From a virus (Duplodnaviria > Caudoviricetes): a DNA stretch of 56,181 nt. The translations under genes and the position numbers were made by a program. The notes under the pieces are model-generated. The model was not told where the DNA came from, did no database searches, and worked only from the letters and a program-made list of their open reading frames with translations. The stretch lies in the IMG/VR virus record IMGVR_UViG_3300010412_000017, positions 1 through 56,181 of that record; one strand, written 5' to 3'. Shown piece by piece: positions 3,045-33,990 of this stretch. Numbering within the stretch: position 1 is the first letter of the stretch; each line of letters begins with the position of its first letter.

Positions 3045-3962
3045 TTACGCGATGGCGTTGGTGATGCCGTAGAGACGGGCCGCGCAGTCGCGGGATGCCA
3101 GCACCAGGCTGATGTCCCATTCCACACGGGTCCGCAGCGCGGGCTTACTGTCCAGCTCGCCCAGGTCGCGGGCCATCAGGCCGCTCTCGGTCTGGATGCC
3201 GAAGAGGTCCTCCTCGGCGTCCGCGCTTCCGAAACGCACGGCGTAGATGCTCGTGGTGTCGAAGGTCGCATCGCCTGGGTCCTCGTCGAAGTCCAGGATG
3301 TCGGTGTGGGTCTCGTCCTTGCCCACGTTGAGCAGCGGGACGCCGGCATAGGTGGTCACCTGGCGGCCGAAGGCGTCGGTCGTGGTGTTCACCTGGGTGT
3401 CGGCACGGAGCAGCTTGGTCAACAGCTGGTGACCGCCGTCGCCACACAGGATGGCGTTGGCGCCTGGAACCGCCCGCAGCAGGTCGTCGAGCATGTCCTG
3501 CGTCAGGGCTGCACCACCGGAGCCGGCCAGGATCTTCTGGCTGCCGGTCAGGCGTGCGTTCAGGCCGTCGAACTCGCGGGGGTCGGACTGGCTGTTGCCG
3601 TCAAACACCATGCGGTTCAGGTAGCGGGCCATCGCCTTGACCTTGAGGGCCTCGTGCGCTGCGCGTACCTGGGGGCCGCGGGTGCGGATGATGTGGCTGT
3701 CAACGTCCAGGTCGCCACCTGCGATGCGCAGGGTCTCGGTCTGGGGGTTGATCACGCCAGTGCTTTCGCTGAAGCCTTCGTTCACGCCACGGAAGGCCAC
3801 GCCCGGCAGGGCCCCTTCCATGTTGTAGCTGTAGGCGTTTCCGCGGATGTTGAGAAAGTCTACGCGCTCGAGGATCGGGCTGTTCTGAACATAAACCTCG
3901 ATGATGCCCGCACGCAGCTGGTCCTGGGCCAGCTTGCTGGCCTCCTGGAGAAGCAGTGCCAT
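3045..3962 (-). CDS. Major capsid protein
   Basis: 305 aa after the scaffold gene; LPGVAFRGVNEG, GGDLDVD, EFDGL, RTRVEW...AARLYGI motifs. Confidence 0.9.
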   Translation of the reverse strand: MALLLQEASKLAQDQLRAGIIEVYVQNSPILERVDFLNIRGNAYSYNMEGALPGVAFRGVNEGFSESTGVINPQTETLRIAGGDLDVDSHIIRTRGPQVRAAHEALKVKAMARYLNRMVFDGNSQSDPREFDGLNARLTGSQKILAGSGGAALTQDMLDDLLRAVPGANAILCGDGGHQLLTKLLRADTQVNTTTDAFGRQVTTYAGVPLLNVGKDETHTDILDFDEDPGDATFDTTSIYAVRFGSADAEEDLFGIQTESGLMARDLGELDSKPALRTRVEWDISLVLASRDCAARLYGITNAIA

Positions 3963-4018: not shown

Positions 4019-4765
4019 TCACTCGTTTGCGTGCGCAGCACGCATCCTGTCGACGCCTCGCAGGGTTTGGTTCCCCTGGCCAGCACCACTGTGCCCGGAG
4101 TAGTCTTTGCCGGCACCGCCGCCTTTCGAGGGCTGGAACAAATGCCGCGCTCCGCCCTTGAGTTCTTCCATGAATTCGCCCACGGTCTGGCTGCTCTTGC
4201 CGTCCGACCCGTAGAGCACGTTGCCCTCGCCATCCTTTGCGACGACACCATCGCCCTCCAGGTAGAACCGCTCGCGGCCCCGTCGGACGATGTCTGGTAG
4301 CGCGTCAGGCAGGGCCCCTGCCCGTGTCGCTTCACTGCTGAGCGCGTTCTCGATCAGGACGACCTCCAGCCGGCCTTTCAACGCGTCGCGCTCCTTGGAA
4401 ATGTTGCCCAGCTCCTCGGCGTGGGTCTCCTGCATCTTGCCGATGCGCTTGTTCAGCTCGGCCTGGATCAGCTCCTCGACCTTGTCCTCGTCGATGGCCT
4501 TCTTGCGCTGGCCTTTCTTGTGCTCCTCCACCAGGGCTTTCAGCTCCTCGGTGGACAGGTCGCCGATGGCCTCCTGGACCTCGCCGAATTTGCCCTTATA
4601 GGTGCGGCGCTCCTCGCGCTCGTGCTCCAGAGCAGACTTCAGACCCGTGACGTCCTCGATGTCGTCGGCGTCAAACTTGTAGCGGCCGTCGCTCTGTTGC
4701 TTGTAATGCTCGCGCAGCGCTTCCGGGATCTCGTCGAGGGTCTTGTAGAAAGCCTTTAGTGCCAT
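4019..4765 (-). CDS. Capsid scaffolding protein
   Basis: Coiled-coil, charged 248 aa; LDEIPEALREHY..., GLKSALEHER, HLFQPSKGGGA. Confidence 0.8.
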   Translation of the reverse strand: MALKAFYKTLDEIPEALREHYKQQSDGRYKFDADDIEDVTGLKSALEHEREERRTYKGKFGEVQEAIGDLSTEELKALVEEHKKGQRKKAIDEDKVEELIQAELNKRIGKMQETHAEELGNISKERDALKGRLEVVLIENALSSEATRAGALPDALPDIVRRGRERFYLEGDGVVAKDGEGNVLYGSDGKSSQTVGEFMEELKGGARHLFQPSKGGGAGKDYSGHSGAGQGNQTLRGVDRMRAAHANE

Positions 4766-4825: not shown

Positions 4826-5206
4826 TTACACCCCCCCTTGAGCCGCCTCCCGTTCGATGATGCCCGCCAGGTCGCCCTGGCTCCTCGCCGAGGCCTCAAG
4901 CTGGCGCCGGTAGGCGTCGTAGGTGGCCTGGATCTCTGGCATGCCGTCGTTGATCCGGTCCAGGCGGATGGTGCTCGCCAGGTCGGTCAGCTGCCAGCCG
5001 TCCGGGGTCTCGGTCACGGTGGCCGGGTAGCGGTGCAGCGGGAAGGCGCCCGGCAGGGGCTCCAGCCAGTTGGCGGTTGCCAGGACCAGGTCGCCCTCGG
5101 TCTCGCCGGCGCCGACGATCAGCACCTCGAACTCGGGGCTGTCGGCGAAGGTGAGCCGCAGCCCGTGGGCGTTGGCCTCCTCGATCAGGTCGGTTGTCTC
5201 GCTCAT
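4826..5206 (-). CDS. Acidic hypothetical protein; candidate immunity partner of the MuF fusion
   Basis: 126 aa with ATGA overlap on the MuF stop; function inferred from position only. Confidence 0.6.
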   Translation of the reverse strand: MSETTDLIEEANAHGLRLTFADSPEFEVLIVGAGETEGDLVLATANWLEPLPGAFPLHRYPATVTETPDGWQLTDLASTIRLDRINDGMPEIQATYDAYRRQLEASARSQGDLAGIIEREAAQGGV

Positions 5207-8200
5207 GAGTATTTGGCCTCGCGGACGACCTCGTCCAGGGACCGGCCGTCAGGCCACTGAGTATACCCGTGTTTTTCCCGCAAGAAGCGGATAAACCGCG
5301 CCTTTCCGCCTTTCGGTACGATGAAGGCGTCGAAGTTGTCGAACAACGAGCTGCCGCCTTTCAGGATGGTCTCGTTGCTGCCGTTCCGGGCCGCCTGGCG
5401 CATCTCCTCGATGCTCGACTTGCGGTTGCGCAGGATGTAGGCGGTGGTGTCGGTGCGGCCGAATTTGTCGCCGTCGTAGCTGATGGCGTCCACCCTGGCC
5501 GCCTCGCGGGCCTTCCATGTCAGGCCGACGTGGCTCTCGGCGTTGTCCACGGTCTTGATGCGGGTAAAGAAAAAGTCCGCTCCGCCGGTGCCCAGGTCGC
5601 TTTCCGGGCTCATGCCCTTGGGGATGATGCCCAGGCGCAGCTTGTCAGTCGTCGGCGCCATGCGTCCGCCCGAGGACAGGATCTTGTCGATGCTCTCGAT
5701 GTAGCCGTTTATGCCGCTGCTGTCGTAGAGGTGATGGTAGAGGCGGTAGTCGCGCTCGAAGCGCGCCCAGCCGGGGTCGCCCAGCAAGTCGGCCCGGAAG
5801 CGGTGCACGCGCCCGGTCTCGAAGGCGCCGCGGCTACCGGCCGGGTCGTAGAAGCCGCTTTCCTCGATGTCGTAGCCCAGCTCACGGCTGATCCAGCTCC
5901 GCCCGATCTCGACGCGCTCCTCGGGGGTCTTGCCCTTGGCGATCTTTTTCTCGAAGTCGCGCCAGTTGGTTTTCCGGGCATAGGCCAGCTGGGTGAGGTA
6001 CAGCTCCTCCTCCATGGCCGCCGTCGGCAGGGCGGTGTCGATGCCGGTGGCCTCGTCCAGGGCCTCCACGGCCCGGTTGGCTGCCCCCACGTCCTGGCCC
6101 TTGACGCGGATCTCGACGCGGCCCCTCATGGCCGCCGCGGTGTTGCTGTCCCAGACGCGGATGGTGGTGCCGTCGGGCAGGGTGGTCTCGTAGGCCTTCA
6201 GGCCGGTGCTGCCGCGGTAGCCGCCGGCCTTCTTGGTGACGTGGCCGCGGCTGAAGTCGCCGGCATCGAACTCGGCGGCGACCGGGGTCCAGGTTGGCCC
6301 GGTCTGGCCGACCACCTTGGGCGCCGGTAGCTTGATGCCCGCAAAGTTGCCGCTGGTCGGCGGGGTCCACACCGCGGTCTTGCCGGATCCGCGGGCGGCC
6401 GCGGTCTCCAGGGCGTCCAACCATGGCTTGTAGTGGCGCTCCAGGTCGGCGCGCTGGGCCGTGGTGTAGGCGCCCTTGCGGATCAGGGCGGTCATGTCGG
6501 CGTGGGCCTTTTTCCAGGCCTCCAGGGCCGCCTGGACACGCTCGACGTCTTTTAGCTCCAGCGCCTCGCTGCGGTTGGCCCGGTAGGCGATCCCCTTGAT
6601 CGCGGTCACCAGCTTGTTGTCCAGGGCCTCGTGGTCCAGGCCGATGGCGGTGGTCTTGTTGGCGCTGACCGAGGCCTCGAACTTCGACAGCGCGTCGCCT
6701 CTGAGCTTCATGGTGGCGACCGTGTACTTGGCGCTGCCGGTGGTCTCGTGGTGGATCAGGATCTGCTGGTCCTCGATGGCGTCGTAGTCGCTGCGGATGG
6801 AGTAGCCGGTGGCGCGGGCGTTGGTCACGCGCTTGTACTCCTCGTTGCTGACTCGCTTGCCCAGGTCCGGGGGCGGCGGCGCCTTGGCCTCGCGCACCAG
6901 GTGCGGGTAGCGCTTCTTGAGATCGTCGCGGCGAGCTTTGAGGATCGTCGCTAACTTTTCACGCTCCGGCCTGGCCCGCGGGCCGTACTTCTCGACCAGG
7001 TCGTCGATCTCGCTGTCGGTGATGCGCACGATCTGGCTCACGCCGGCCTCGATCTTGGCCTCGGGGATGTCCTTGAACACCGCCGCGGCCTGCTTGTTGG
7101 TGCTGCCGTTGCGCAGGCTCTGCAGCTCGTCCACGGTCGTGGTGAAATTCGCGCCCTTGGCCGTGCCCTGGGCCCGGTAGCGAAGGCCGCCACCCACGTC
7201 GATGCGCAGGGCCCGGCCGGCAGCGGTCTTGGCGATGTTGTCGTAGCTCAGGCCGACGACGTCCCAGTCGGCCAGCCAGGCGTCGGCGGCGAAGCCCTCG
7301 TAGGTGCCTTCCAGCTTCGCCATTTTCTCGGCCCCGCCGGCCTTCTTGAGGCCCTCGATCCAGCGGCTGGCGACGCCGATCTTGCCGGCCCGGTCGCCGG
7401 CTGCCGCGCCCAGCTTGATGATGCGCATGTCCGGGGCCTCGATGCCGGCCAGGCGGTAGAGCTTGGCGGTGAGGACCTCGTTCAGCGCCACGTCCTCGCT
7501 GGCGGTGTACTTGACCAGCCACTCCTGGCCCGCCTCGTCCTTGAACACCGCGCCAGGGACCGATCCGCCGGGCTTTGGCTGGCTGTAGGTCCAGCCCTTC
7601 ATGTCGAGAACGGCGTCCACGTCCGCCTGGGCGGCGGCAGCGGCCTTTGCGGCCTTCACCTCGGCCTTGACCTCGGCCACCTCGGCGGCGGCCGCAGCGG
7701 CGCCCTCCTCGGCGACCTGGGTGACGACGTCCTTGAGGTCCTTGATCGCGCTGTCGGCCGACTTCTTGCCCTTTGGGCTCAGGAACTTGTAGGCCTTCTC
7801 CTGGGCCTTGGTGGGCTTGGCGCCGTAGGCGACGGCGTTAATGTAGCCGTCTACATTGTCGTTCAGCGCCTCGATCTGGTCGGTGAGGGCGGCCTTTTCG
7901 CTGGGCGTCAGGAAGTTGAACACCTCGCTCTGCTTGGGCGTCGGGGCCTCGCCCGAGACCAGCTTTTTCTTGTAGCCGGACAGGACCGCGCTCTTTTCGG
8001 CCTGGGCCTGGGCGGCGGAGGCCAGCTCCTTGGCCTTGGCGAGCTTGCGGTACGGGCTCAGGGTCTTGAGCACCGGGTCGGTCTCCAGGTCCTGCAGGGC
8101 CTTCGCCAGCTTGGTCTTGCCGGTCGGGTTGGCGAGGGTGTCGGCGATCTCCTCGGCGGCCTTGGCGTTGGCGGCGGCCAGCTCGGCCTGCTTGGCCGCG

Positions 8201-9834
8201 GCGGCCTGCTCGGCGGCCAGCGCCGCCTGGGCCTCGGCCTGCTTGATCTTGATGGCGTCGAGGACGTCCTTTTGCGCCTCGTCGGGCAGCGCCTCAAACG
8301 CCGCCTGGGCCTGGGCGCTCGGCTTCTTGCCCTTGGTCACCGCCTGCTTGTAGTGGGCCAGGTCAACCGACAGCTTTTTCTTGGCCGCCTTGGTGTCGAT
8401 CAGCTCCAGGAGCCCGACCGGGTCGGCCTTGCGCTGGCTGTCGATCCAGGCGCCGCCTTTCTGCTTGGTCAGGTCCTTGAGCGCGCCGTAGTGGTAGGCG
8501 CTGGGGGCCGTATCCTTGCCGGCGTAGGCCTTCAGCTGCTCCTGGGCGGCGCTTTTCTGCTGCAGCTTGGCCTTCTCCTTGGCTGCCGCGATGCGGGCGT
8601 CCAGGGCCTCCTGGGCGGTGATGGCGTCGGCCTGGGCCTTGGCTTGTTTCACATGAAACGTCGAGGAGGCGGCCAGGGCCTGCTGCTGGGCGGCCAGCGC
8701 CGCGGCCGGCAGGGCGGTGGCCGGTATGATGTCCTTGAGGCGTTCGGTCAGCTCCTCGACGGTCAGCGGGTTGCCGGTCTGGTCGATCAGGCCCTTAAAG
8801 TCGAGCTTGCCCTGCTTCCAGAGCGCGTACTTCGCCGGCGTCAGGGCGCCGCTGGTCAGGGCGTAGCCGGGCTCGGCCAGCTCCTTGGCGGCCAGCCAGT
8901 CCTCGTAGCGCACGCCCTTGGGAACCTGGCCGTCCAGGGCGCTGCGGGTGGCGGCGCCCGCGGCGTCGAGCTTCTTGGCGAGGCGTTTGCCCTTCTTGGT
9001 CGGGTTTTTCGCCAACTCCTCGAAGCTGTAGGTCACCGGCACCTGGGTGCTGCGGCAGTTCCAGTGCGCCGTCGGGCCGGGAAAGGTCACGCTATGGCCG
9101 ATGGGGGCGTAGGTCGTCGGGTCCCACATCAGGCCGTCGAGGCCCTTGCAGGTGTCGGTGGTCCGGCTGTCCAGGGTGCTCACCCACTTGATCGCCTTGA
9201 TCAGGTGGGCGTTCTCGGCGTAGGTGCGCAGCCGGGTCAGGTTGGCGACGCTGTTGACGCTCGTGCGCGCCAGGGCCTCGGCCTGGTAGCGCTTCACGTC
9301 CATGATCTTGCGCACGCGGTTCGCCAGCTGGCCCACGTTCTCGCCGGCCAGGGTCCCGAGGCGCATCTCGGTCCTGAACTTCTCGGCGGTGTCGGCCGCC
9401 TGCTTGGCCCACCACTCGCGGCTGGGGGCGCCCTGAATGAAGCCGTCGGCGACGATCTCCTGCAGCTGCTGGCGGTTCAGCGTCGGCAGCCCGAGGTTGG
9501 TCCCGATGGCGATGTTCATGCTGCCCGCGGCCAGGCCGGCCTCCATGGCTGCCAGCTTGGTCAGGGTCTTGTTGGTCACCTTGCGGGCGGTGCCGAAGCT
9601 CGACCCGATGATCCCCTGGGTTTGCTTGAGCAGGGCCTTGAGGCGCTGTTGCTGGTAGGCCGTAAGTTTCGGAGCTGTCGGATCGACGGCGTTGAGGCGT
9701 TTTATAAGGTCGCCCTCTAATTCCTTGAGGACCTTCAAAACGTCGGCGCGAACGGTGCCCTCCAGCTTGATGAGGTCGACCTGATGACCGATCAGCTGGT
9801 CCTGCAGGACAGCGTTCGCGCTCTGGGTTGCCAT
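5203..9834 (-). CDS. MuF (SPP1 gp7-like) minor head protein fused to kinase-like and ADP-ribosyltransferase-like domains
   Basis: MuF motif WVSTLDSRTT..C..LDG...PTAHWNCRS; Ala/Lys linker; kinase-like WLVK..NEVL..DAWLADWD..DN..IDVG; C-terminal LYHH..IL..GG..FFTR..NE. The MuF call is strong; the enzymatic domains are less certain. Confidence 0.85.
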   Translation of the reverse strand: MATQSANAVLQDQLIGHQVDLIKLEGTVRADVLKVLKELEGDLIKRLNAVDPTAPKLTAYQQQRLKALLKQTQGIIGSSFGTARKVTNKTLTKLAAMEAGLAAGSMNIAIGTNLGLPTLNRQQLQEIVADGFIQGAPSREWWAKQAADTAEKFRTEMRLGTLAGENVGQLANRVRKIMDVKRYQAEALARTSVNSVANLTRLRTYAENAHLIKAIKWVSTLDSRTTDTCKGLDGLMWDPTTYAPIGHSVTFPGPTAHWNCRSTQVPVTYSFEELAKNPTKKGKRLAKKLDAAGAATRSALDGQVPKGVRYEDWLAAKELAEPGYALTSGALTPAKYALWKQGKLDFKGLIDQTGNPLTVEELTERLKDIIPATALPAAALAAQQQALAASSTFHVKQAKAQADAITAQEALDARIAAAKEKAKLQQKSAAQEQLKAYAGKDTAPSAYHYGALKDLTKQKGGAWIDSQRKADPVGLLELIDTKAAKKKLSVDLAHYKQAVTKGKKPSAQAQAAFEALPDEAQKDVLDAIKIKQAEAQAALAAEQAAAAKQAELAAANAKAAEEIADTLANPTGKTKLAKALQDLETDPVLKTLSPYRKLAKAKELASAAQAQAEKSAVLSGYKKKLVSGEAPTPKQSEVFNFLTPSEKAALTDQIEALNDNVDGYINAVAYGAKPTKAQEKAYKFLSPKGKKSADSAIKDLKDVVTQVAEEGAAAAAAEVAEVKAEVKAAKAAAAAQADVDAVLDMKGWTYSQPKPGGSVPGAVFKDEAGQEWLVKYTASEDVALNEVLTAKLYRLAGIEAPDMRIIKLGAAAGDRAGKIGVASRWIEGLKKAGGAEKMAKLEGTYEGFAADAWLADWDVVGLSYDNIAKTAAGRALRIDVGGGLRYRAQGTAKGANFTTTVDELQSLRNGSTNKQAAAVFKDIPEAKIEAGVSQIVRITDSEIDDLVEKYGPRARPEREKLATILKARRDDLKKRYPHLVREAKAPPPPDLGKRVSNEEYKRVTNARATGYSIRSDYDAIEDQQILIHHETTGSAKYTVATMKLRGDALSKFEASVSANKTTAIGLDHEALDNKLVTAIKGIAYRANRSEALELKDVERVQAALEAWKKAHADMTALIRKGAYTTAQRADLERHYKPWLDALETAAARGSGKTAVWTPPTSGNFAGIKLPAPKVVGQTGPTWTPVAAEFDAGDFSRGHVTKKAGGYRGSTGLKAYETTLPDGTTIRVWDSNTAAAMRGRVEIRVKGQDVGAANRAVEALDEATGIDTALPTAAMEEELYLTQLAYARKTNWRDFEKKIAKGKTPEERVEIGRSWISRELGYDIEESGFYDPAGSRGAFETGRVHRFRADLLGDPGWARFERDYRLYHHLYDSSGINGYIESIDKILSSGGRMAPTTDKLRLGIIPKGMSPESDLGTGGADFFFTRIKTVDNAESHVGLTWKAREAARVDAISYDGDKFGRTDTTAYILRNRKSSIEEMRQAARNGSNETILKGGSSLFDNFDAFIVPKGGKARFIRFLREKHGYTQWPDGRSLDEVVREAKYS

Positions 9835-10029: not shown

Positions 10030-10226
10030 TACGGTTCTCCTGGGGCCTCGACGCGGGCCCGGCCGCCGAGGTGGGTGTCGTGAAGGTGGGCCAGGACCTC
10101 GCGGATGCTGTCAAACGTCGCGCCGCATCGGTGGCAGGTCAGGGCTGCCGGGTGCGGGGCGGGTTGGTTCGACGGCGCGGGCGCGGCGGGGTGCGGCCGG
10201 TTCCGGCTGGCGTGCTTGTCAGCCAC
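10029..10226 (-). CDS. Small C2H2 zinc-finger protein
   Basis: CHRCGATFDSIREVLAHLHDTH = C-x2-C-x3-F-x5-V-x2-H-x4-H; stop overlaps the next start (TAATG). Confidence 0.7.
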   Translation of the reverse strand: MADKHASRNRPHPAAPAPSNQPAPHPAALTCHRCGATFDSIREVLAHLHDTHLGGRARVEAPGEP

Positions 10227-10851
10227 GGTCTAGCTCCTTTGCCAATAAGGCGGTGATGACGACCAGCTCGTCGTCGGTTCCCTGTTGCGTCACTTCGATA
10301 CGGCTCTCACCGCTCAACCACAGGCTGCCTCGCAGGCTTATGCCCTGGGTGCTTGGCGTTGGGTCCAGCACTCGGGCGTCGCTCTTAGCGTCGATCTCCA
10401 GGGCGGTGGTGACGCTCTGGGTCAGGCGGTGACGTTCGGCGTCACCTGCTGGCGCTGCCGGCGGCGGAGAGGATGCCGCCTTTCGGGTCGCCACAGCCTG
10501 GGGTTTCGGCGGTGAGGCCGTAACCGGGGCCGGCCGGGTTCTGGCCGGTTCGATCATCCGGGCCGTGGTGCGCCCGGTCAGCTCCAGCTCGATCTGGCTG
10601 TCGGCGACCAGGGTCTGGCCGTCCTCCAGCGCCGCGGTGGTGAAACCGTCGAGCGTGAGGTAGAAGATGCTGTCCTGGGCCCGGTACCACTCGGGCTCGA
10701 TCAGGCGCAGGCCGCCGCCGGCCCGGCGCACGGGCTCCGGGATCACCGCGGCGGCGTTCTGCAGGTAGCCGCGGGTGGCCCTGGTCAGGCTGTCATTGGC
10801 GTCGCCAAGGTGCCCGCGGGTGGCCCTCGGGAGGGTCGCCAGCAGGCCCAT
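10219..10851 (-). CDS. Hypothetical protein
   Basis: 210 aa; duplicated RATRG(H/Y)L at the N-terminus, Pro/Ala linker, DDELVVITALL at the C-terminus. Confidence 0.65.
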   Translation of the reverse strand: MGLLATLPRATRGHLGDANDSLTRATRGYLQNAAAVIPEPVRRAGGGLRLIEPEWYRAQDSIFYLTLDGFTTAALEDGQTLVADSQIELELTGRTTARMIEPARTRPAPVTASPPKPQAVATRKAASSPPPAAPAGDAERHRLTQSVTTALEIDAKSDARVLDPTPSTQGISLRGSLWLSGESRIEVTQQGTDDELVVITALLAKELDRG

Positions 10852-10855
10852 GGCG

Positions 10856-11026
10856 TCAGCTCGCCTTCATGTAGCCCGCGGCCGTGGCGATCAGCGCCGT
10901 GACGGCGCTCTCCAGGCCTACGGGGGCGGTTGCCATCAGGTCCGGCAGGTAGTAGCCGGCGATCCACATCAGGACCGTGCTCGCGGCGCCGGCGGCGCCG
11001 ACCGCTATCACTTTTTTCTCAGGCAT
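10856..11026 (-). CDS. Small two-TM membrane protein, holin-like (56 aa)
   Basis: Below the ORF-track cutoff; MPEKKVIAVGAAGAASTVLMWIAGYYLPDLMATAPVGLESAVTALIATAAGYMKAS fills the gap between neighbours. Confidence 0.65.
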   Translation of the reverse strand: MPEKKVIAVGAAGAASTVLMWIAGYYLPDLMATAPVGLESAVTALIATAAGYMKAS

Positions 11027-11267
11027 CGTGCGGGGTTCCCTCGTTGGGCGGGGCCTCGTCGCCCGGTACCTCGGCGTCCTCGATGGCCCCGATCAGGTCG
11101 TCAAGCGCCACGCGGGCCCGGCGGCCCAGGTCCTTGACGTCGGCGATGGTGACCTCGCGGCCCTCCTGTCGGGCCTTGTCGATCAGCAGGCCGTATTCCT
11201 GCCAGGCGATGCCCAGCCGGGTGATGCCGTTCAAAACGGCGACGATCTCGACGGCTGTTACGCTCAT
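11019..11267 (-). CDS. Hypothetical protein (partner of the adjacent lipoprotein)
   Basis: 82 aa helical protein with ATGA overlap on the lipoprotein gene. Confidence 0.6.
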   Translation of the reverse strand: MSVTAVEIVAVLNGITRLGIAWQEYGLLIDKARQEGREVTIADVKDLGRRARVALDDLIGAIEDAEVPGDEAPPNEGTPHDA

Positions 11268-11617
11268 TGCAGCAGTACCTCCACCTGGGTCAGGATCTGG
11301 CTCGTGGTCTGCAGGTAGGTCTGGCTGTCAGCGATCTGCCCTGCTTCCAGGGCCGCCTCGGCCATCTTGTTCACCTGGTAGGCCTGTTCGAGCACCTCGG
11401 AAATGTTGCGCGCCTTCTTGGCGTCGATGGTGCCCACGCGCAGGCTGTTGGCCGTGCTTTGCGCCAGGCTCTCGATGCTGGCGTAGTTGAGCGCCAGGCT
11501 CTCCTCGGGGCTGGCGGGCGCGTGAAAGGTTGCGCAGCCGGCCGTCATGATGACGATCATCAGGACGAGGGCCAGCGCCAGGATGGCGCGGGTTCGGGCT
11601 TGTTCGGATACGGTCAC
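11264..11617 (-). CDS. Lipoprotein, possibly spanin-like
   Basis: Basic N-terminus, hydrophobic stretch and lipobox TAG|C, followed by a helical domain. Confidence 0.65.
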   Translation of the reverse strand: MTVSEQARTRAILALALVLMIVIMTAGCATFHAPASPEESLALNYASIESLAQSTANSLRVGTIDAKKARNISEVLEQAYQVNKMAEAALEAGQIADSQTYLQTTSQILTQVEVLLQ

Positions 11618-11629
11618 TTGGCTTGCCTC

Positions 11630-12439
11630 CTACGGCTGTCGGGTTACGGTGCTGATGTTCTCGCCGTCGCCGGTGATGGCTTGGTCGATGGCGCCAGCGC
11701 TCTGGGTGGTCTTGGTCACGACCAGCGGGTTGCTGGCATCCAGGCCGAGGATCGTCCAGACCTCGTCCAGGCGTGTCGGGTCCAGGGCCGCGAGGACGTC
11801 GCTCTGCAGCAGGGTCGCGCTCGAGCTGGCGGTTCTCACGATCTGGGTGAAGGCGGTAGGGAAGACCGGGGCCAGCTCCTGGGCCGCCTGGTCCTGGGCC
11901 ACCAGGTTGCCGCCGCTGATCTCGCACTGGACCACGTTCCAGATCTTGTAGGCGTCGCTCGCCGTGAACTGGTTGGTGGTGCCGGCGCGCAGCACGCGGC
12001 AGGCGAGCTGGGTCTGGCTCAGGACCTTGAGCACCTCGGTGATGCTCTGGTCGCTGAAGTTGATCACCACCGCCCCGCGGGTGACGCCGTCGGTGATGAA
12101 GGTGGCGCCGCTGTCCTCCAGGGTGCGCCCGTTGCTGTCTGGGGTGGTCACGCTGCCGCTGCTCGTCGGTGTCAGGCGGCTCTCAAACGCTACCTGGCCG
12201 TTCTGCAGGGTGCTGGTGATCCCTACCGTCACGCCACCGCCGAGGTTTTCCTTGCCGGCGCTGTCGATCAGGTAGGGCTCGTCCAGGTTGTCGAGGTCCG
12301 ACTCGGCAAAGCCCACGCCGGTGTCGGCGCGCAGCGTGTCGTGCAGGTCCTGGATCTCCAGGGCCTGGCTGGGCGCGGCCACCTCGATGATCCGAGGTGA
12401 CTCCGCCCAGTCGACGCTGATGTCGTTCCTTTCCGCCAT
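11630..12439 (-). CDS. Putative virion structural protein
   Basis: 269 aa Thr/Ser-rich beta protein tightly packed with the two upstream large genes. Confidence 0.55.
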   Translation of the reverse strand: MAERNDISVDWAESPRIIEVAAPSQALEIQDLHDTLRADTGVGFAESDLDNLDEPYLIDSAGKENLGGGVTVGITSTLQNGQVAFESRLTPTSSGSVTTPDSNGRTLEDSGATFITDGVTRGAVVINFSDQSITEVLKVLSQTQLACRVLRAGTTNQFTASDAYKIWNVVQCEISGGNLVAQDQAAQELAPVFPTAFTQIVRTASSSATLLQSDVLAALDPTRLDEVWTILGLDASNPLVVTKTTQSAGAIDQAITGDGENISTVTRQP

Positions 12440-12442
12440 CGG

Positions 12443-15400
12443 TTAGGGCAGGTCGACGATGCCGTCGCTGTTCTGCACCACACCGCCCGTGCCGCCGGTG
12501 CTCGTGAACTCCGTAGTGGAGCGGAAGGGCTTGTAGCCCTTCTTGCGTGCCACAAAGAAGATCGGGATCGAGGCGACGTACTGCATCGTGTTGCTCACGC
12601 TGGTTCCGCCCGCGGTGGTGCGGATGAACGCCACATGCACGTTGTCGCTCACGGTCAGGTCAACCGCGCCCGTCACGTCGCCGATGGTGCCCGAGGCCAG
12701 GGTGAAAATGTTGGTGGTCCGGTCCACGGCGCTGTAGGGGAACTGCAGGTAGTTGCCCGTGTCGTTGGGGTCCAGGATGTACAACACGCCCGTGTCCGGC
12801 ACGTCCGCCGGGGTGGGGCTCACGCTGCGAGTATTGGCGGCGATCAGGATGGTGCTGTCGCCGGCCTGGTTGTTGCCGGCGCCCACCGTGCCCACGGCGA
12901 ACTCGTTGCGCAGGATCGCGCCGTTGCCCAGCCCGGTGTCGCGGAAGGCCGCCACGCGCCAGCCTGCCGAAACACCGGAAATGACCAGGCTCTGCAGGTT
13001 CGGCGGGTTGCGGGTGACGCCCGCGTCGTCGATGACGCTGAACGAGCGGATGTCGGCCGCGGCGATGTAGTCGGTGTCCAGGAACCAGCCCTGCGCGAAG
13101 GCCAGCGAGCCGGTGTAGGTTCCGACCGGGGCGCCAGGCTTCACTTCGGAGTAGGCGTCCTTGAGCTTGCGGAAGAACCGGCCCACCGTGCCAGCGTCGG
13201 TCGTGCCTGGGCCCTGGAAGGAGAAGGTCTCCTCCTCGTGGCGTGCCAGGTACTTGCTGTACTGAAACACGTTCTGGATCGTATCGGCCGTGCCGCCGGT
13301 CTTGTTGCCCGAGACGCTGCCGGCATAAGGCTGGGCGCCCTCGCCGTTGTTCAGGTCCGCGGAGAACGAGGAGGCCGAGGGGTAGGTCGCGCCGGTGCCG
13401 GCATCCCAGGTCGCGCTGGAGGCGCCGCCCGTGATGTCGTTGTCGCCCGAGAAGGTGCCGCTCACGACCTCCAGGTAGAGCACGTTGGTCGTGGTGTTGG
13501 CGTAGACGAGCTTTCCGGTGGCGCCGGTGACCGCCTGGGTGACGGTCTCGCCGGGGATGAAGGTGCCCGTGATGCCGGTACCGCCCGAGGGCGTTGCGGC
13601 CAGGTCAACCACCTGCAGGCTGATGTCGTCGCCGTAGCCGGCCACCACGTCGGTGGGGGCGCCGCTCACGGTCGCGGTCTTGCCGCTCAGCTCGAAGGTG
13701 ATGCTGTCGGTGTCCACAAAGTTGCTGCCGCTCTTGAGGACGTACTCGACCGTGCCGGTGGCGCCCGTGCCGCTGGTGTCGCTCACCACAATGCCGACCT
13801 TGCGGCTGTTGCCGCTGCCGGCGGTGAACAGCTCGCCCACAATGGGGGCCGCCGCAGAGCCGCCGGTGATGGCCAGGCTATGGGTGCCGTTCGGGTTGTT
13901 GGTGACCTCGCTCTGGGTACCCAGCGCGACGGTGTTCACGCCGCCGCCCGGTGCCACGAACTGGGTAGCGTCGTAGGTGCTCACATGGTACTCGCGGTTG
14001 AGCACCGTGTAGGCGCCTGGCACCTGGGGGTCGCCGCCAGGGATCAGCTGGCCGAGGCCTGGGGTCGCCGGTGCGATGTAGCGCGGGTCGTTGCGGGTCT
14101 TGACCTTCACCAGGACGTCGATGTTGCCCTCTAGCCAATGGCAGGGCACCTTGCGCTGGTCCTGCTCGATGTAGAGCTGGGGCATGCGGTAGGGCTGCGC
14201 GCTGCTGTAGAAGAACGCCGTGTCGGTGATCTTGTTCTGCGCGCCCACGGTCTGGGGGTTGGCCCAGATGTTGGCGCCGGTGGTGTCGGTCAGGCCGCCC
14301 TGTCGCAGGAAGCGGGTAGACAGCTCTGGCATGAACCAGCCGAAGACGAGCTGATACGCGCCGCCCTTGACCGAGGCGTCCATCGCCTCGTCGTCGTCGA
14401 GCTGTAGCAGCTCGTCGAAGGTGTCCTGGCTCAGCGTGTAGAGGCTGTTCAGCTTGCGGACGATGTTCAGGCCGTCGGCCGCGGCGTAGATGCCGCCCTG
14501 GCCGCTGGCGCCGGTCACGCTGCTGGTCGGGACCTGCTCGGTGCGCAGGCCGTCCGGGATGTTGATCACCGCGACCGTGAGCACGTCGTTGGTGCCGTTG
14601 GCCTCGGCGATCTTGACGCCGCCGACGTTCAGGTCCTCGGTCGTGGTCCAGGTGCCGCTCTCGTCGGCCAGGATCAGCTGGGTGCCGGTGTCGGCCAGCA
14701 CGCGGCCGGTGGCCCCGCTGGTTCCGCCTACCACCACGTCGCCGGCCGAGAACACCTTACCGGCCACCTGGTTGGTGTAGCCGATCACCTGGTCGACCTG
14801 CAGGTTGTTGTTGTTGGTGAAGACGCCGCCGGTGCTGTCGTAGTCGACCAGGCGCAGGCTGCCGGTGGCGGTCACGCCGTAGACTTGCTCGACCAGGGCC
14901 TTGGCGCCGGTGCTGGCGTCGAGGACGATGGCCTGGTCCGGGATGGCGACCGTGCCGCCATCGTAGTGCAGGATGACGCTGTCGTTGGTGTTCGCCGTGC
15001 CTGGGACCGCGAGCGTGCCGGTCGTGGAGGCCGTCAGGGCCGCGTCGTTGTCGGTGTTGCCGTACTCGGTCGCCACGTCGGCCACGTCGGCCTGGCCGCC
15101 GCTGATGTCGATCTGGCTGTTGTCGGTGAACGCGGCGAAGTTGTTACCGTAGGCGATGCCCGCGCCGCTGCCGTCCTCGTTGTACTCGATGGCGAGCACG
15201 TCCATGCTGCCGGTCACCTGGTCGACGATGGTGTCGCCGACGGCGAAGCCGCCGTTACCCGAAGTGATGGCGTCGAAGCCGACCACGCTGGCGATGTCGA
15301 TCTGCTCGCCGCTCTGGAACAGGCCGACCGTGTTGGTCAGGGTCAGGGTGCCGCTCGAAACGGTGCCGGTGCGGGCGATAACCTTCGCCACGGCTCCGCT

Positions 15401-15529
15401 GGTCACGCCGTAGATATAGTCGCCGACGGCCGGCTGGGTGCCGCTGCCGGTTCCGTAGCTCAGGACGCCGTCGATGTGCTGCAGCACCTTCCCGGCGTAG
15501 TCAAAGTCCCAGTCGTCTGCGATGGGCAT
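12443..15529 (-). CDS. Large Gly/Thr-rich putative virion structural/appendage protein
   Basis: 1028 aa; repeated FxxG(D/E)x(V/I)xxxT(S)GATG units; ends IVDLP. Confidence 0.65.
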   Translation of the reverse strand: MPIADDWDFDYAGKVLQHIDGVLSYGTGSGTQPAVGDYIYGVTSGAVAKVIARTGTVSSGTLTLTNTVGLFQSGEQIDIASVVGFDAITSGNGGFAVGDTIVDQVTGSMDVLAIEYNEDGSGAGIAYGNNFAAFTDNSQIDISGGQADVADVATEYGNTDNDAALTASTTGTLAVPGTANTNDSVILHYDGGTVAIPDQAIVLDASTGAKALVEQVYGVTATGSLRLVDYDSTGGVFTNNNNLQVDQVIGYTNQVAGKVFSAGDVVVGGTSGATGRVLADTGTQLILADESGTWTTTEDLNVGGVKIAEANGTNDVLTVAVINIPDGLRTEQVPTSSVTGASGQGGIYAAADGLNIVRKLNSLYTLSQDTFDELLQLDDDEAMDASVKGGAYQLVFGWFMPELSTRFLRQGGLTDTTGANIWANPQTVGAQNKITDTAFFYSSAQPYRMPQLYIEQDQRKVPCHWLEGNIDVLVKVKTRNDPRYIAPATPGLGQLIPGGDPQVPGAYTVLNREYHVSTYDATQFVAPGGGVNTVALGTQSEVTNNPNGTHSLAITGGSAAAPIVGELFTAGSGNSRKVGIVVSDTSGTGATGTVEYVLKSGSNFVDTDSITFELSGKTATVSGAPTDVVAGYGDDISLQVVDLAATPSGGTGITGTFIPGETVTQAVTGATGKLVYANTTTNVLYLEVVSGTFSGDNDITGGASSATWDAGTGATYPSASSFSADLNNGEGAQPYAGSVSGNKTGGTADTIQNVFQYSKYLARHEEETFSFQGPGTTDAGTVGRFFRKLKDAYSEVKPGAPVGTYTGSLAFAQGWFLDTDYIAAADIRSFSVIDDAGVTRNPPNLQSLVISGVSAGWRVAAFRDTGLGNGAILRNEFAVGTVGAGNNQAGDSTILIAANTRSVSPTPADVPDTGVLYILDPNDTGNYLQFPYSAVDRTTNIFTLASGTIGDVTGAVDLTVSDNVHVAFIRTTAGGTSVSNTMQYVASIPIFFVARKKGYKPFRSTTEFTSTGGTGGVVQNSDGIVDLP

Positions 15530-15541
15530 GGTTCTGTCTCC

Positions 15542-17233
15542 TTACGGTAAGTCCACTATGGTGTTGGGTGAAAGGGTCACGCCCACGGATATCCCGTTTT
15601 GCGTGATGGTTCCGCCGGTGCGGAAGAACCGCCAGCCCTTGAGCCGCACCTTTGTGGTCACCGCGACGTCGCTACTGTAGTTGTAGGTGGCGTCGCTGTA
15701 CACACCCGAGGCGTTGGTTGTGCCCTGGGTGATGAGGCTGCCGTCGCTGGCTGCCTCGATCCTTACGCGGGCCCCCTCTATCGGGTTGCCTGCGCTGTCC
15801 TCGACGGTGACGGTCAGGGTCACCGTGTTATTGATCGTCACCGTCCCGGTGTAGCCGCCCACGGTCTCGTAGCTGAGCGCCTGGGTGCCGCCGTCGGCCG
15901 GGTTCTGGGCCGCGCTGTTGGTCAGGTTGATAGTGATGTTCGCGCTCGTCGTGGCCGGGTTGATATAAAAAATGCGGTTGCCCGCGGTCCCGGTCTGGGT
16001 CGCGTAGCCGTCAAAAACGTAGCCGTCGATGTTGTAGGTGAACGGCCCAGCGCCGGTGGGCGCGATCTCGATGGCGTGCCCGGTGCCGTCGCTGTTAAAG
16101 CGCAGGTTGTCCTGGTTCTGCACATCGGTGGTGTTCTCGTCCCAGATGATGGCGCCGTTGGCATCGGTGGTGCCGTTAAAGGTCGCGCCGTCCAGGGTGA
16201 AGCTCTGCAGGTCGACCTGGTCGCAGTCGTTGAAGGTCAGGCTGGCACCAAACTTCGAGGCGTCCACCGTCGGGAAGGTGATCGCGGCCAGGCCGCCGAA
16301 GGTGACGTTGGTCAGCTCCACCACGTCGACGTTGGTGTCGCTCAGGTCGAAGGTCGCCCGCACGCCGGTGTTGACGATGGTCACGTTGGTCAGCTTGAAG
16401 CTGATCAGGTCGGTGGCGTTGCCGACCAGGCGGAAGGGGAAGTTGCCCGCGCCGATGGCCCGGCCGCCGCCGTTGTCGCCGATCCAGTACCACTGCTCGT
16501 TGGTGGCCTCGAAATAGGCGTCTGCCGTGGCGGTCGGGTTGCCCCACTCGGTCGGCGCAAAAAAGCCGTACTGCGCGCCCAGGGGGTTGTTGACCATGCC
16601 CCAGCCGTTGGTCTCGTCGTCGCCCTGGACGTCGGCCATGGTCTCGGGTGTGCCGCTCGTGCCGCCGTTGATGCGCAGCGCCGCGGTGCCGTTGGCGATG
16701 TAGCTGATCCGGTCGACCAAAACGTTAGCCACGTTGCCCTGGGCCTTGGCTAGGTGGAGGCTGCCGTAGCCGATGCGGGTGATGGCGGTCTGGGCCAGGC
16801 TCGCCTCGCTGCCGGCGTAGGCGTTGAAGCTGCCGGGGGTGGCGACCACCTCGGAAACGTCCAGCTTGAAGGCGTTGTAGAAGGGGGTCAGCGGCAGGCC
16901 GACAGCGTCGTTGCCGGCCACGTCATAGCCGATGTCGTTGGTGCCATCGCCCAGGGTGATCTGCACGCCGCCGTTGGCATAGGTGTCGACCAGGTTGTCC
17001 TTGACCAGCATGTACACCGTGGCATCGCTCAGGTTGTAGCTGAACGTCCCGCCGCCGCCGCTGGTCTGGGTGGTCCAGACGTGCTCGTCGGTGTTCGAGT
17101 GCTGGGTGGTGATCGCCGCGGTGCCCTCGTAAAAATAGCCGGTCAGGGTGGTCGTGGCCGGGGCCGCACCGTCGCCGGCCCAGCCGGTGGCGTTGTCGGC
17201 ATCGTTCACCTCGGTTCGCAGATCAACGCTCAT
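15542..17233 (-). CDS. Putative virion structural protein with C-terminal carboxypeptidase-regulatory-like beta-sandwich
   Basis: 563 aa; LTVTVEDSAGNPIEGARVRI..GTTNASG motif; ends IVDLP. Confidence 0.65.
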   Translation of the reverse strand: MSVDLRTEVNDADNATGWAGDGAAPATTTLTGYFYEGTAAITTQHSNTDEHVWTTQTSGGGGTFSYNLSDATVYMLVKDNLVDTYANGGVQITLGDGTNDIGYDVAGNDAVGLPLTPFYNAFKLDVSEVVATPGSFNAYAGSEASLAQTAITRIGYGSLHLAKAQGNVANVLVDRISYIANGTAALRINGGTSGTPETMADVQGDDETNGWGMVNNPLGAQYGFFAPTEWGNPTATADAYFEATNEQWYWIGDNGGGRAIGAGNFPFRLVGNATDLISFKLTNVTIVNTGVRATFDLSDTNVDVVELTNVTFGGLAAITFPTVDASKFGASLTFNDCDQVDLQSFTLDGATFNGTTDANGAIIWDENTTDVQNQDNLRFNSDGTGHAIEIAPTGAGPFTYNIDGYVFDGYATQTGTAGNRIFYINPATTSANITINLTNSAAQNPADGGTQALSYETVGGYTGTVTINNTVTLTVTVEDSAGNPIEGARVRIEAASDGSLITQGTTNASGVYSDATYNYSSDVAVTTKVRLKGWRFFRTGGTITQNGISVGVTLSPNTIVDLP

Positions 17234-18294: not shown

Positions 18295-19773
18295 TTAGCC
18301 CCTCACCAGGCGGACCACGTTGCCGCTGTCGTCGCGCTCCACGTTGAAGGCGTCGCCGCCGTCCTGGGTGGAGGCCTGGCCGGCCCCGCCGTCGTTGCTG
18401 GCGTCTGGCTGGGCCGCTTCGAGGGCCTTCATCTCGTCCTCGACCGTGCGGTCCTCGGGCAGGATCTCGCCGACCTTCAGGTTGTGCAGCAGGGTCTCCT
18501 GGCTGATCGCGCCCTTGAGGTAGGCGTCCACCAGGGCCTGGATCTCCTGGGGGGTCATGCGGGCGTCCACGAAGTCCTTGTTCATCTCGACGCTCACGGC
18601 GTCGGCGCTGGCGCCTTCCCATTCCGCGGCCAGCTCCAGGGCGGCCTCCAGGCCCATGGCCACGGCGCCGGCGATGTCGGCCAGGGTGGCATTGCTGCCG
18701 GCCTGGTGAATACGGGCGGTCTCGGCGGCCTCGACGCCGGCCCGCGGGGGCTCGATCATCCGGGCGCCCAGGGCGGCCATCTTGGCCTCCTTTTCCTCCA
18801 TGCCGGTCTGCAGGGTGGCGATGCCGACCCCGCTGAACTCCAGGAAGCCGACCTGCGCGCCTTCCGGCAGGCGCCAGGCCTTGCCGCTGCCCAGGGGTAG
18901 CTCGGTGCCGGTCTTGCCCTCGTCCACGCCGGACACCCAGGGGGTGGGCAGGGCGGTCAGGTGCCGGCCGTGCTCGATGTCGGCGCTGTTGCGGTAGTGC
19001 GCCAGGTTCATCTCGGCGATGTCGAGGATCGGCGGGTCCCAGACGTCCAGGCCCACGCCCTTGGGGTTGACCGGGACAAACGGGATGCGGTCCAGGGGCT
19101 GGCCGGCCTTGAGCGGTACCAGGTCCTCGACCACCTGCCAGTTGTTGTTCTGGTCGCGCTTCCACAGGCGCTGGTGATAGCTCGCCGTGCCGGTGGGCTG
19201 CCCGGCCTCGTCGACGTCTGCCAGCAGCGTCAGCTCGCGATAGCGGATCTTGGCGGTCAGGGTGTACGGGTCGCTCGGGTCGGCCTCGTAGTAGCCCTCC
19301 TTGAGGACGATCAGCGTCAGGTTGCCGTCCTCGTCCTCGCGCCAGTTGGTGATCTCCTCGGCGGCGTAGCCGGTGAGGTAGAGGTCGCTGTTCTCTTGCT
19401 TGCTGCGGTCAACCAGGAAGCCCAGGCGCCCGCTGATAAGGAGGCCTTCCGTGGCGTGCTTGGCGACTTCCGCCAGGCTTTGTCCATCCTCGGTGGCGTT
19501 CTCCTCCAACGCCTCGATCTGGCTGGGTAGCTCGACCACCGGGGCTTTCCGGTTGACGAGGCCCGTCATGCCCTCGACCGTGCGGCCGGTGGCGTTGAAA
19601 AACACCGCCCGCTGCAGGTAGGCCTTGTACTCGTTGGCGTCCTGGCCCTCAAGCTGGGGCAGGTGCTCGGTGGTGCGCGCCTTCACGGCCGCCTGGCCGT
19701 CGTTGGCGTCGCGGGCGTGCTGCCACTTGATGGTCTGGTCCTGGTACTTGGGATGCACAGTGTCGATGGGCAT
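18295..19773 (-). CDS. Portal protein (DUF4055 type)
   Basis: HPKY..W..RD, YLQRAVFFNATGRT, PPILDIAEMNLAHYRNSAD motifs; follows terL. Confidence 0.9.
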   Translation of the reverse strand: MPIDTVHPKYQDQTIKWQHARDANDGQAAVKARTTEHLPQLEGQDANEYKAYLQRAVFFNATGRTVEGMTGLVNRKAPVVELPSQIEALEENATEDGQSLAEVAKHATEGLLISGRLGFLVDRSKQENSDLYLTGYAAEEITNWREDEDGNLTLIVLKEGYYEADPSDPYTLTAKIRYRELTLLADVDEAGQPTGTASYHQRLWKRDQNNNWQVVEDLVPLKAGQPLDRIPFVPVNPKGVGLDVWDPPILDIAEMNLAHYRNSADIEHGRHLTALPTPWVSGVDEGKTGTELPLGSGKAWRLPEGAQVGFLEFSGVGIATLQTGMEEKEAKMAALGARMIEPPRAGVEAAETARIHQAGSNATLADIAGAVAMGLEAALELAAEWEGASADAVSVEMNKDFVDARMTPQEIQALVDAYLKGAISQETLLHNLKVGEILPEDRTVEDEMKALEAAQPDASNDGGAGQASTQDGGDAFNVERDDSGNVVRLVRG

Positions 19774-21198: not shown

Positions 21199-21488
21199 AC
21201 CAGGCGCTCTAGCATCTCGGCGAAAATGGCGACCAGGAGCCAGGCCATCAAAACCCCGAGGCCGGCGGCGAAGCTGAGCACGGCCCAGATCGGCAGGTCG
21301 GGCTCGGGCTCCTCGTCCGGCCATTCCGGCTTGCTCCACAGGCGCAGGTTGCTGGGCAGGTCCGGGTAGTCGCCCAGGCCCTCGCCGTGGCAGTTGGGGC
21401 AGCCGTACTTGCCCAGGCGGCTGGGGAAGCAGTACCCGCAGGCCTCGCATCGGATCGGGTGGTCTACCGTGGGCTGCATCAGTTGCAC
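21195..21488 (-). CDS. Zinc-ribbon protein with C-terminal TM helix
   Basis: CEAC-x11-CPNC followed by hydrophobic LPIWAVLSFAAGLGVLMAWLLVAIFA. Confidence 0.6.
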   Translation of the reverse strand: MQLMQPTVDHPIRCEACGYCFPSRLGKYGCPNCHGEGLGDYPDLPSNLRLWSKPEWPDEEPEPDLPIWAVLSFAAGLGVLMAWLLVAIFAEMLERLV

Positions 21489-33963: not shown

Positions 33964-33990
33964 GGTTGGTTCTCCTGTTCCGTGCGGTTG

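Follow-up and report, generated by a model that had tools for sequence, protein, structure and literature searches.

An atypical kinase-like domain coupled to an exchangeable C-terminal module in a MuF-type phage head protein

The virus record IMGVR_UViG_3300010412_000017 from IMG/VR, a metagenomic sequence of 56,181 bases with direct terminal repeats that we refer to, in its full length, as the window, carries on its minus strand a single open reading frame (ORF) for a 1543-residue protein (P0001) that begins with a MuF-type head-morphogenesis region and continues into a long C-terminal extension. Within this extension, residues 744-978 almost certainly constitute a real kinase-fold domain, and behind it lies a conserved segment that we call module X. 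The best overall explanation, and one that we hold to be reasonably likely, is an atypical kinase borne in the capsid and injected into the host along with a C-terminal warhead that can be swapped. In terms of novelty, this is the known theme of MuF toxins and polyvalent proteins, built here on a very large uncharacterised kinase family.

An earlier note on this DNA had quoted six kinase motifs, and all six are present in the order that it gave within residues 744-978 (Table 1); translation of positions 6900-7605 on the minus strand yields 235 residues uninterrupted by a stop. These are numbered 1-235 as a domain, so that K32 is K775 and D115 is D858. We aligned the domain with 39 of its 150 best phmmer matches, picked as single-copy and mostly shorter proteins (alignment A1, 40 rows), and with 46 of 80 IMG/VR loci (alignment A2, 47 rows). 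K32, E43, D108, D115, D122, N123 and D136 are invariant in both. A wider set started from 166 tblastn segments in 159 loci and, once high-scoring segment pairs of fewer than 150 query residues had been dropped, comprised 155 distinct domains (74 viral, 81 from genome contigs). Every one of the 155 has E43, D108, D115, D136, G138, G139 and K150; K32 is found in 153, the remaining two being gaps, N123 in 154, R144 (R887) in 148 and D122 (D865) in only 145. Basic residues near the presumed metal-binding Asp (R877, R887, K893) are invariant or near-invariant across the same domains. The observation of kinase motifs is thus confirmed, far beyond chance.

The predicted structure places these residues where a kinase would need them. 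AlphaFold 2 (AF2), given alignment A1, produced a model with a predicted local distance difference test score (pLDDT) of 97.2 and a predicted template modelling score (pTM) of 0.93; the single sequence alone gave a pLDDT of 41.7. The model has an N-lobe of five strands (domain residues 6-10, 18-22, 28-32, 60-64 and 76-81) with a long helix at 37-52, and a C-lobe of helices within 92-232, including those at 160-232. Strands 6-10 and 18-22 flank the Gly-rich loop, K775 is the last residue of strand 28-32, and E786 sits in helix 37-52; helix 102-110 leads into the D-x6-D-N loop, followed by short strands at 124-126 and 131-134 and then D136. Each role proposed earlier for a motif (Gly loop, beta3 Lys, helix-C Glu, catalytic loop, DFG equivalent) thus falls at its claimed place in the model, which shows the hallmarks of a protein-kinase-like fold: two lobes, a strand-3 Lys/helix-C Glu pair, and a catalytic Asp/Asn with a metal-binding Asp, at an Asp-Asn spacing of 8.

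Structural searches returned kinases. In a Foldseek search of the PDB, 54 matches passed E ≤ 0.001; CtkA headed them (E 8.9e-6, TM-score 0.60), and actin-fragmin kinase (AFK), VPS34 (E 3.9e-5), PI4KIIalpha, HipT and HipS-HipT, HipA and a bacterial Ser/Thr kinase were among the further leaders. VIA-align, a search independent of Foldseek over 48,161 representative chains, also put CtkA first (Z 15.4, root-mean-square deviation 3.2, 201 of 235 residues, 16% identity). CotH (14.1), PI4KIIalpha (13.6), MavQ (12.3), HipA (12.1, entry 4pu3) and entry 7wcf (12.0) came next, ahead of Fam20 (11.7), AFK (11.2), the HipA/HipT entry 5k98 (10.6) and then RIO, Bud32, PIKK and canonical kinases; 37 chains reached Z ≥ 8, and all of the best 50 rows have a kinase fold. 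Small-molecule kinases ranked lower, with APH(2'') at Foldseek rank 34 (TM-score 0.33) and MPH at Z 7.9 in VIA-align. The earlier note had been prepared to give up its reading if a model showed no kinase fold; a model was built and the fold found, with CtkA as the top match, and the atypical-kinase interpretation therefore holds as far as the fold and the active-site residues are concerned.

Several results weigh against this interpretation. By sequence, the Pfam family HipA_C (PF07804) scores 20.4 bits on the domain alone and 18.3 on the whole protein, below its cut-off of 30.5. Neither phmmer nor profile searches of the PDB found a solved kinase above chance; the best PDB profile match is HipA, at E 0.8 and over the Lys/helix-C stretch only, and hhalign of A2 against Escherichia coli HipA gave a probability of 2.9. 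In the active site, the catalytic loop has an Asp-to-Asn spacing of 8, where the canonical spacing is 5, and it lacks the His; the equivalences that we draw there rest on order, secondary structure and conservation rather than on residue-level superposition. The conservation of D108, W110, D115 and E43 in the 159-locus set is partly built in, because the peptide patterns used to retrieve the loci covered DAWL..WD and NE.L..LY; K32, N123, D136 and K150 lie outside those patterns, and A1 derives from a pattern-free search. The record itself is metagenomic, with direct terminal repeats yet a CheckV completeness estimate of 51%. Finally, a kinase fold is no proof of kinase chemistry: SelO AMPylates and SidJ glutamylates.

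The same comparisons bear on which kinase family the domain belongs to. Its HipA_C match is restricted to domain residues 19-66, corresponding to positions 10-61 of the 213 in the profile (52/213, the Lys/helix-C part), and 20 of the 47 A2 members touch HipA_C at E ≤ 0.01, none convincingly. PI3_PI4_kinase (PF00454) has no match at E ≤ 1, NCBIfam has none, and PHROGs has none for the kinase domain alone; a PDB search with the full-length alignment A1 returned only artefacts of Ala-rich linkers. CtkA, though the best fold match, has no match to the domain by phmmer or PDB profile search at E ≤ 10. A Pfam scan of the protein found no HipA N-terminal domain, and there is no HipB or HipS partner among the neighbouring ORFs. 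P0013, a distant relative that contains five copies, scores above the cut-offs for HipA_C, HipA_2 and APH, and the family is therefore tied to the kinase clan by transitivity. We rejected membership of HipA or of PI3K/PI4K on the HipA_C score and the missing PI3_PI4_kinase match. The HipA/PI4K-like superfamily proposed earlier holds for the fold, through the matches to CtkA, PI4KIIalpha and HipA, and fails for family membership: the domain forms a family of its own within the atypical branch, neither HipA nor PI3K/PI4K, and its likeness to them is in fold only.

The domain had been described as lying inside MuF, which has to be corrected. Pfam Phage_Mu_F matches residues 152-264 (53 bits against a cut-off of 29.6; window positions 9043-9381), PHROG 241 'head morphogenesis' covers residues 1-421 (E 9.8e-78), TIGR01641 scores 56 bits, and the kinase lies about 480 residues beyond the Pfam domain, after an Ala/Lys-rich linker (26% Ala and 13% Lys over residues 371-745). 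The linker holds three copies of a motif of about 36 residues; its YK..G..P form also appears in the family consensus directly upstream of the kinase, and the protein of a sister phage, on contig L033, has one extra copy. Downstream of the kinase, the middle region recurs in 59 of the 150 top kinase relatives found by phmmer and in 40 of 80 viral loci, and its residues 1035-1168 are 35% identical to the L033 protein.

Module X is present behind the kinase in 53 of the 150 top relatives and in 36 of the 80 viral loci. The MuF protein of Pseudanabaena phage Pan1 has the module too (37% identity) but no kinase, and only three stand-alone relatives were found (191-611 residues). In a quick IQ-TREE phylogeny of 151 kinase domains (79 rows unlabelled; ADP-ribosyltransferase (ART) labels available only for the 63 Pfam-scanned proteins, with P0014 below the cut-off), all 54 X-bearing rows fell within one group of 69 rows, with an SH-like approximate likelihood-ratio (SH-aLRT) value of 98. 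The X label required 5 changes on this tree; 500 shuffles averaged 16.3, and not one of them came down to 5. Within the X group, P0033, which carries module X, and P0041, which carries ADPrib_exo_Tox, are sisters, 70.5% identical over residues 1-763 and 1-741 respectively, and their homology ends exactly at the end of the kinase. A second exchange is seen between the window and L033. The two share a 1028-residue ORF (76.7% identical), the scaffolding protein (67.8%) and the start of the major head protein (81.8%), and the 1340-residue MuF protein of L033 matches that of the window at 66.6% over residues 1-421, 63.4% over 422-700 and 46.3% over the kinase. Its C-terminal 210 residues, in place of X, match the Pfam-ART regions of family members. 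From both comparisons, the kinase has thus been kept while the warhead behind it was exchanged, and P0033/P0041 and L033 each display the exchangeable C-terminal enzymatic extension that marks MuF toxins and polyvalent proteins. Judged by these alignments, module X is in the slot of a classical ADP-ribosyltransferase.

What module X itself encodes is less clear-cut. Of its residues, 15 are invariant, among them those of SGG, R-x-G, D..TGG, R-x-D, NET and WPDGR, and there was no Pfam match in 32 members and no PDB profile match. Comparison by hhalign with 13 aligned R-S-E ART regions of the kinase family gave a probability of 0.1. Its look-alikes by language model are OspC (0.90) and DarT/PARP (0.85-0.87), which serve as a lead only. 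As a lead, then, module X may have a divergent ADP-ribosyltransferase fold; we do not claim ART identity.

The kinase family is large and widely spread. An exhaustive phmmer search of 1.84 billion cluster representatives, with clusters defined at 50% identity, found 4493 proteins at E ≤ 0.001; of these, 3161 reached E ≤ 1e-10 and 663 reached E ≤ 1e-30. The best 150 relatives are 266-7004 residues long (median 1433), with a median of 661 residues before the kinase and 386 after it; 28 of them hold two to five kinase copies, the second scoring much lower in some. For 10 relatives, the cluster names offered nothing beyond 'SPP1 gp7 family putative phage head morphogenesis protein'. Among GenBank phages the domain is present in 20 of 50,697 records, examples being the 1213-residue 'ADP-ribosyltransferase' of Pseudomonas phages Jeremy and Dolphis, and proteins of Aeromonas phage ST4, Yersinia phage fHe-Yen8-01, Morganella phage Mecenats66 and Gordonia phages. 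A relative is encoded in 441 of 467 pattern-matched stretches of IMG/VR and in 147 of 263 stretches when one genome per species is taken. These species-representative genomes come from Pseudomonadota, Actinomycetota, Chloroflexota, Bacillota, Bacteroidota and Verrucomicrobiota, as well as Planctomycetota, Armatimonadota, Acidobacteriota, Melainabacteria-type metagenome-assembled genomes (MAGs) and a Candidate Phyla Radiation (CPR) MAG. In BFVD the same fold occurs in phage proteins that bear the names portal protein, ADP-ribosyltransferase and Nudix hydrolase. In the genome of Endozoicomonas atrinae, at least four separate contigs carry the domain (L104, L107, L113, L115); in the only scanned Endozoicomonas ORF with a match, on L106, the domain is fused to MuF, a hint of several prophages or copies.

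We surveyed the partners of the kinase in three Pfam scans. The first took 35 relatives at E ≤ 0.001 and found MuF in 19 above the cut-off and one below, ART-type domains in 10 and one below, WGR in three, and NUDIX, 2_5_RNA_ligase2 and Peptidase_C80 in one each; five had no match. The second took 28 further relatives chosen for lacking module X, at E ≤ 1e-5, with ART-type domains in seven, WGR in four, NUDIX in two, MuF in one and no match in 15. For the third, 24 ORFs were picked for taxonomic spread from 79 genome loci: MuF was found in seven, Phage_min_cap2 in one (L134), ART-type domains in six, NUDIX in five, WXG100_2 in two and no match in eight. A BFVD match adds a fusion of the kinase to an HK97-type portal. 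The identifiable partners belong mostly to NAD/ADP-ribose biochemistry (ADPrib_exo_Tox, ART, ART-PolyVal, Scabin-like, NUDIX, WGR, 2_5_RNA_ligase2, DUF3626).

Some of the scanned proteins have architectures of their own. Giant chromosomal proteins of Nonomuraea (L125:3550-7317) and Streptomyces (L149:736-12567) join an N-terminal WXG100_2 domain, a hallmark of secreted toxins, to the kinase and to NUDIX and an ADP-ribosyltransferase or DUF3626; these look like secreted polymorphic toxins rather than phage proteins. A 2689-residue MuF protein of an Eubacteriales MAG (L122:388-8454) has a HINT/intein-like element with a DUF559/MTES_1575 endonuclease after MuF, followed by NUDIX and the kinase. 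In the Pseudomonas syringae group, stop-to-stop frames of 560-773 residues (L136:5125-7281, L156:4990-7308, L163:5605-7284) encode the kinase and then NUDIX, and all three kinases keep all six catalytic residues. Compared by description only, these frames resemble HopAG1, a P. syringae type III effector described as an N-terminal ART with a C-terminal NUDIX (PMC9963460; this and the other PMC-numbered papers are cited from excerpts of their text), a paper in which the word 'kinase' does not occur. An hrp-box pattern matches in L136 only downstream of the ORF and is absent from L163.

Taken together, the domain is probably an active phosphotransferase, and the protein is rather likely to be packaged in the capsid and injected. 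We infer packaging and delivery at infection because of the polyvalent-protein concept (Iyer et al., 2017, PMC5512222), and the gene lies in the head module, with portal and terminase upstream and scaffold and major head protein downstream, as expected of a MuF toxin. The MuF part would anchor the polypeptide in the capsid at the portal, with the long Ala/Lys-rich linker tethering the cargo, and at infection the whole protein or its C-terminal cargo would enter the host cell with the DNA; an enzyme would suit a cargo carried at very low copy number. Since the capsid holds no ATP, the kinase would act in the host cytoplasm, using host ATP and Mg2+ to phosphorylate one or more host targets, most likely proteins. 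It would work alongside the C-terminal module as the constant partner of a swappable warhead, X here and a classical ART in the sister phage. The substrate cannot be read from the sequence, as the earlier note had said and as we agree; a protein is slightly favoured, because the nearest folds are CtkA, CotH, HipA, AFK and Fam20.

The near-exclusive company of NAD/ADP-ribose enzymes makes a coupled chemistry between kinase and warhead conceivable. The substrate might accordingly be an NAD+- or ADP-ribose-derived molecule, or the ADP-ribose mark left by the warhead, instead of a protein, with kinase and ART acting in series to make a hydrolase-resistant mark, to prime a target or to inactivate NAD-derived immune signals. 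Almost all identifiable partner domains are of this biochemistry, the kinase is retained while the warhead is swapped, the basic residues R877, R887 and K893 are conserved, and the pairing recurs in phage head proteins, WXG100-type toxins and the kinase-NUDIX proteins of the P. syringae group. The closest solved folds, however, are protein and lipid kinases, with small-molecule kinases lower; two independent effectors on one delivery vehicle would explain the co-occurrence equally well; and a survey of viral NAD/ADP-ribose metabolism does not, in the excerpts covered, mention such a kinase (PMC9503650). We regard this alternative as unlikely. Its strongest form makes the kinase an obligate partner of ART-type warheads, in a two-enzyme cassette that writes or protects a combined mark, such as a phosphorylated ADP-ribose or ADP-ribosylated target, or that primes the target. 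This is a speculative proposal that we would back only with much reserve; were it true, conservation of the cassette would extend from phage capsid proteins to actinomycete WXG100-type toxins, and probably to a plant-pathogen type III effector, and the cassette would represent a previously unrecognised and very widespread chemistry of host takeover.

The kinase might instead act late, in the cell that produces the phage and without injection, modifying the host envelope or phage components or conferring temporary immunity to superinfection. The gene does lie in the late head module, and ATP is available in the producer cell. A further point for late action, and one that tells against injection, comes from excerpts of a study of five gut phages ('Gratiaviridae') that encode a HipA-family kinase between portal and capsid genes; it argues that this kinase is made late and may act in the producer, in an immunity-type role (PMC8008677). 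These gut-phage kinases may be of the same family as the one in the window. Fusion of the domain to MuF, minor capsid protein 2, portal and WXG100 nevertheless points to delivery into another cell, and a late-acting cytoplasmic enzyme would need no 320-residue tether to a portal-binding domain, so that we find late action improbable.

It is more doubtful still that the domain is a pseudokinase, an enzyme of other chemistry (AMPylation, glutamylation) or a structural or regulatory module for the warhead. The unusual spacing of the catalytic loop, the missing His, the multi-copy relatives with a weaker second copy and the precedent of SelO and SidJ would all suit such a role, but the phosphotransfer residues are invariant across phyla down to about 30% identity, and pseudokinases usually lose them. 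A lipid kinase of phosphoinositide type can be set aside as a very remote prospect: PI4KIIalpha and Legionella MavQ resemble the domain over its whole length and are among the best fold matches (Z 13.6 and 12.3), but protein kinases rank equal or higher, no PI3_PI4_kinase match appears at E ≤ 1, a lipid substrate is unlikely in bacterial hosts, and most hosts of these phages are not known to contain phosphoinositides.

Returning to the reading of an injected kinase with a swappable warhead, its parts can be set against known systems. The best structural match, the secreted Ser/Thr kinase CtkA of Helicobacter pylori (3akj/3akl), is likewise a compact atypical kinase, but it is a stand-alone protein, whereas the window kinase is embedded in a 1543-residue phage head protein; according to abstract-level literature, CtkA is carried on the mobile element ICEHptfs. 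HipA and HipT are alike in fold, and the region of the strand-3 Lys and helix-C 'NE' is the one stretch that aligns by sequence; the loop of the window kinase is longer and without the His. The MuF polymorphic toxins described by Jamet et al. (2017, PMC5576092) and the polyvalent proteins of Iyer et al. (2017, PMC5512222) have the same N-terminal MuF and long enzyme-bearing C-terminus, and share the swapping of C-terminal cassettes and a proposed delivery with the DNA. The Ct_MAD domain of the former paper corresponds to the region just after MuF, and nowhere does that paper speak of a kinase. The latter describes zeta-toxin-like kinases on MuF, together with a polyvalent kinase family that lacks a C-terminal subdomain, has a conserved His..Asp with an insert and occurs mainly in Verrucomicrobia-Chlamydia and Bacteroidetes. 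Compared by this description, the window kinase is not of that family: it has C-lobe helices at 160-232 and no conserved loop His, and its relatives span many phyla.

Two injected or early phage enzymes offer functional precedents (both cited in PMC5512222, PMC8008677 and PMC5576092, as excerpted). T7 Gp0.7 is an early kinase whose targets are proteins of host transcription and translation, and T4 Alt is an ADP-ribosyltransferase carried in the head and injected. There are differences: Gp0.7 is synthesised once infection has begun and comes from a different kinase family, and Alt has no kinase. Gp0.7 and the 933W kinase are the only characterised phage protein kinases named in the excerpts of PMC8008677, and very few have been studied. 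Our literature search turned up no account of this kinase family in MuF or ART proteins, although supplements, which lay outside the search, may list the domain; the nearest papers are PMC5512222, on a different kinase family, and PMC8008677, on the gut-phage HipA-family kinases; the Mecenats66 paper mentions no kinase, ADP-ribosyl, ORF50, mass spectrometry or virion protein. The domain defines one of the largest unmodelled phage enzyme families, covered by no Pfam, NCBIfam or functionally named PHROG model. Given its consistent tie to delivery domains and NAD/ADP-ribose enzymes, it probably marks a common and unexplored means by which phages, and some secreted toxins, disarm or reprogram the cell that they enter. 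As a compact, confidently modelled domain of 235 residues with five mutation targets, it makes the question directly testable.

Table 1. Positions in the window of the kinase gene, its parts and motifs, and neighbouring genes (residue numbers are those of the 1543-residue protein unless given as helix or strand, which follow domain numbering)
Feature	Position	Strand	Basis or remark
Whole gene, MuF-kinase-effector protein, 1543 residues (P0001)	5203..9834	-	one ORF
MuF / SPP1 gp7-type head-morphogenesis region, residues 1-421	8572..9834	-	Pfam, PHROG, TIGR01641
Ala/Lys-rich linker, residues 422-743	7606..8571	-	composition
Three motif copies of ~36 residues, Y-x3-V/L-x2-G-x2-P-S/T, residues 495, 621, 664	8245-8352, 7867-7974, 7738-7845	-	regular expression
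Atypical protein-kinase-like domain, residues 744-978	6901-7605	-	AF2, VIA-align, phmmer
Gly-rich loop KPGGSVPGAVF, residues 754-764	7543..7575	-	G757, S758, G761 at least 90% conserved
Strand-3 Lys K775 (in WLVKY, residues 772-776)	7510..7512	-	invariant in A1, A2
Partner Glu E786 (in NEVLTAKLY, residues 785-793)	7477-7479	-	invariant in A1, A2
Hinge VASRWIEGL, residues 821-829		-	motif search in translation
Catalytic loop DAWLADWDVVGLSYDNI, residues 851-867	7234..7284	-	between helix 102-110 and strand 124-126
D858, putative catalytic base	7261-7263	-	kept in 155/155
N866, putative metal-binding Asn	7237-7239	-	kept in 154/155
RIDVGG, residues 877-882	7189..7206	-	conserved segment with R887, K893 follows
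D879, putative DFG-equivalent metal-binding Asp	7198-7200	-	kept in 155/155
Middle region, residues 979-1194	6253..6900	-	partly common to relatives with other C-terminal domains
C-terminal module X, residues 1195-1543	5206..6252	-	conserved behind kinase in relatives
126-residue acidic ORF	4826..5206	-	ORF list; start overlaps kinase-gene stop (ATGA)
Scaffolding protein	4019-4765	-	PHROG 206, E 2.6e-33; downstream of kinase gene
Major head protein	3045-3962	-	PHROG 212, E 6.6e-73; downstream of kinase gene
Four ORFs (563, 1028, 269, 210 residues) between portal and MuF gene	10219-17233	-	no PHROG match
Portal	18295-19773	-	PHROG 145, E 3.9e-129; upstream of kinase gene
Large terminase	19783-21450	-	PHROG 979, PHROG 2; upstream of kinase gene

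In public collections, 8 contigs carry the exact 1543-residue sequence. Further ORFs that overlap this stretch on either strand have no support and are expected at the G+C content of the window, about 66%. The small acidic ORF that begins at the stop of the kinase gene is a candidate immunity or chaperone gene; it has no PHROG or Pfam match and no tblastn match across the 159 related loci, and it shows no similarity to the ORF following the Pan1 MuF gene. The four ORFs upstream of the MuF gene could be further virion or ejection proteins, the 563-residue one giving only weak Ig-like matches in Pfam, below the cut-off. A head-tail adaptor gene, found by PHROG search, also lies downstream of the kinase gene, and the tail genes wrap round the ends of the record.

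Elsewhere in the window no tRNA genes were found, and no integrase or repressor appeared among the ORFs scanned, a scan that was not exhaustive. Genes for an N6/N4 DNA methylase, a RecT recombinase and RecE-like exonucleases lie at 22630-24066 and 33232-36046 on the minus strand. The phage carries the baseplate hub domains phiJL001 Gp84_N and BR0599, which are typical of phages of Alphaproteobacteria.

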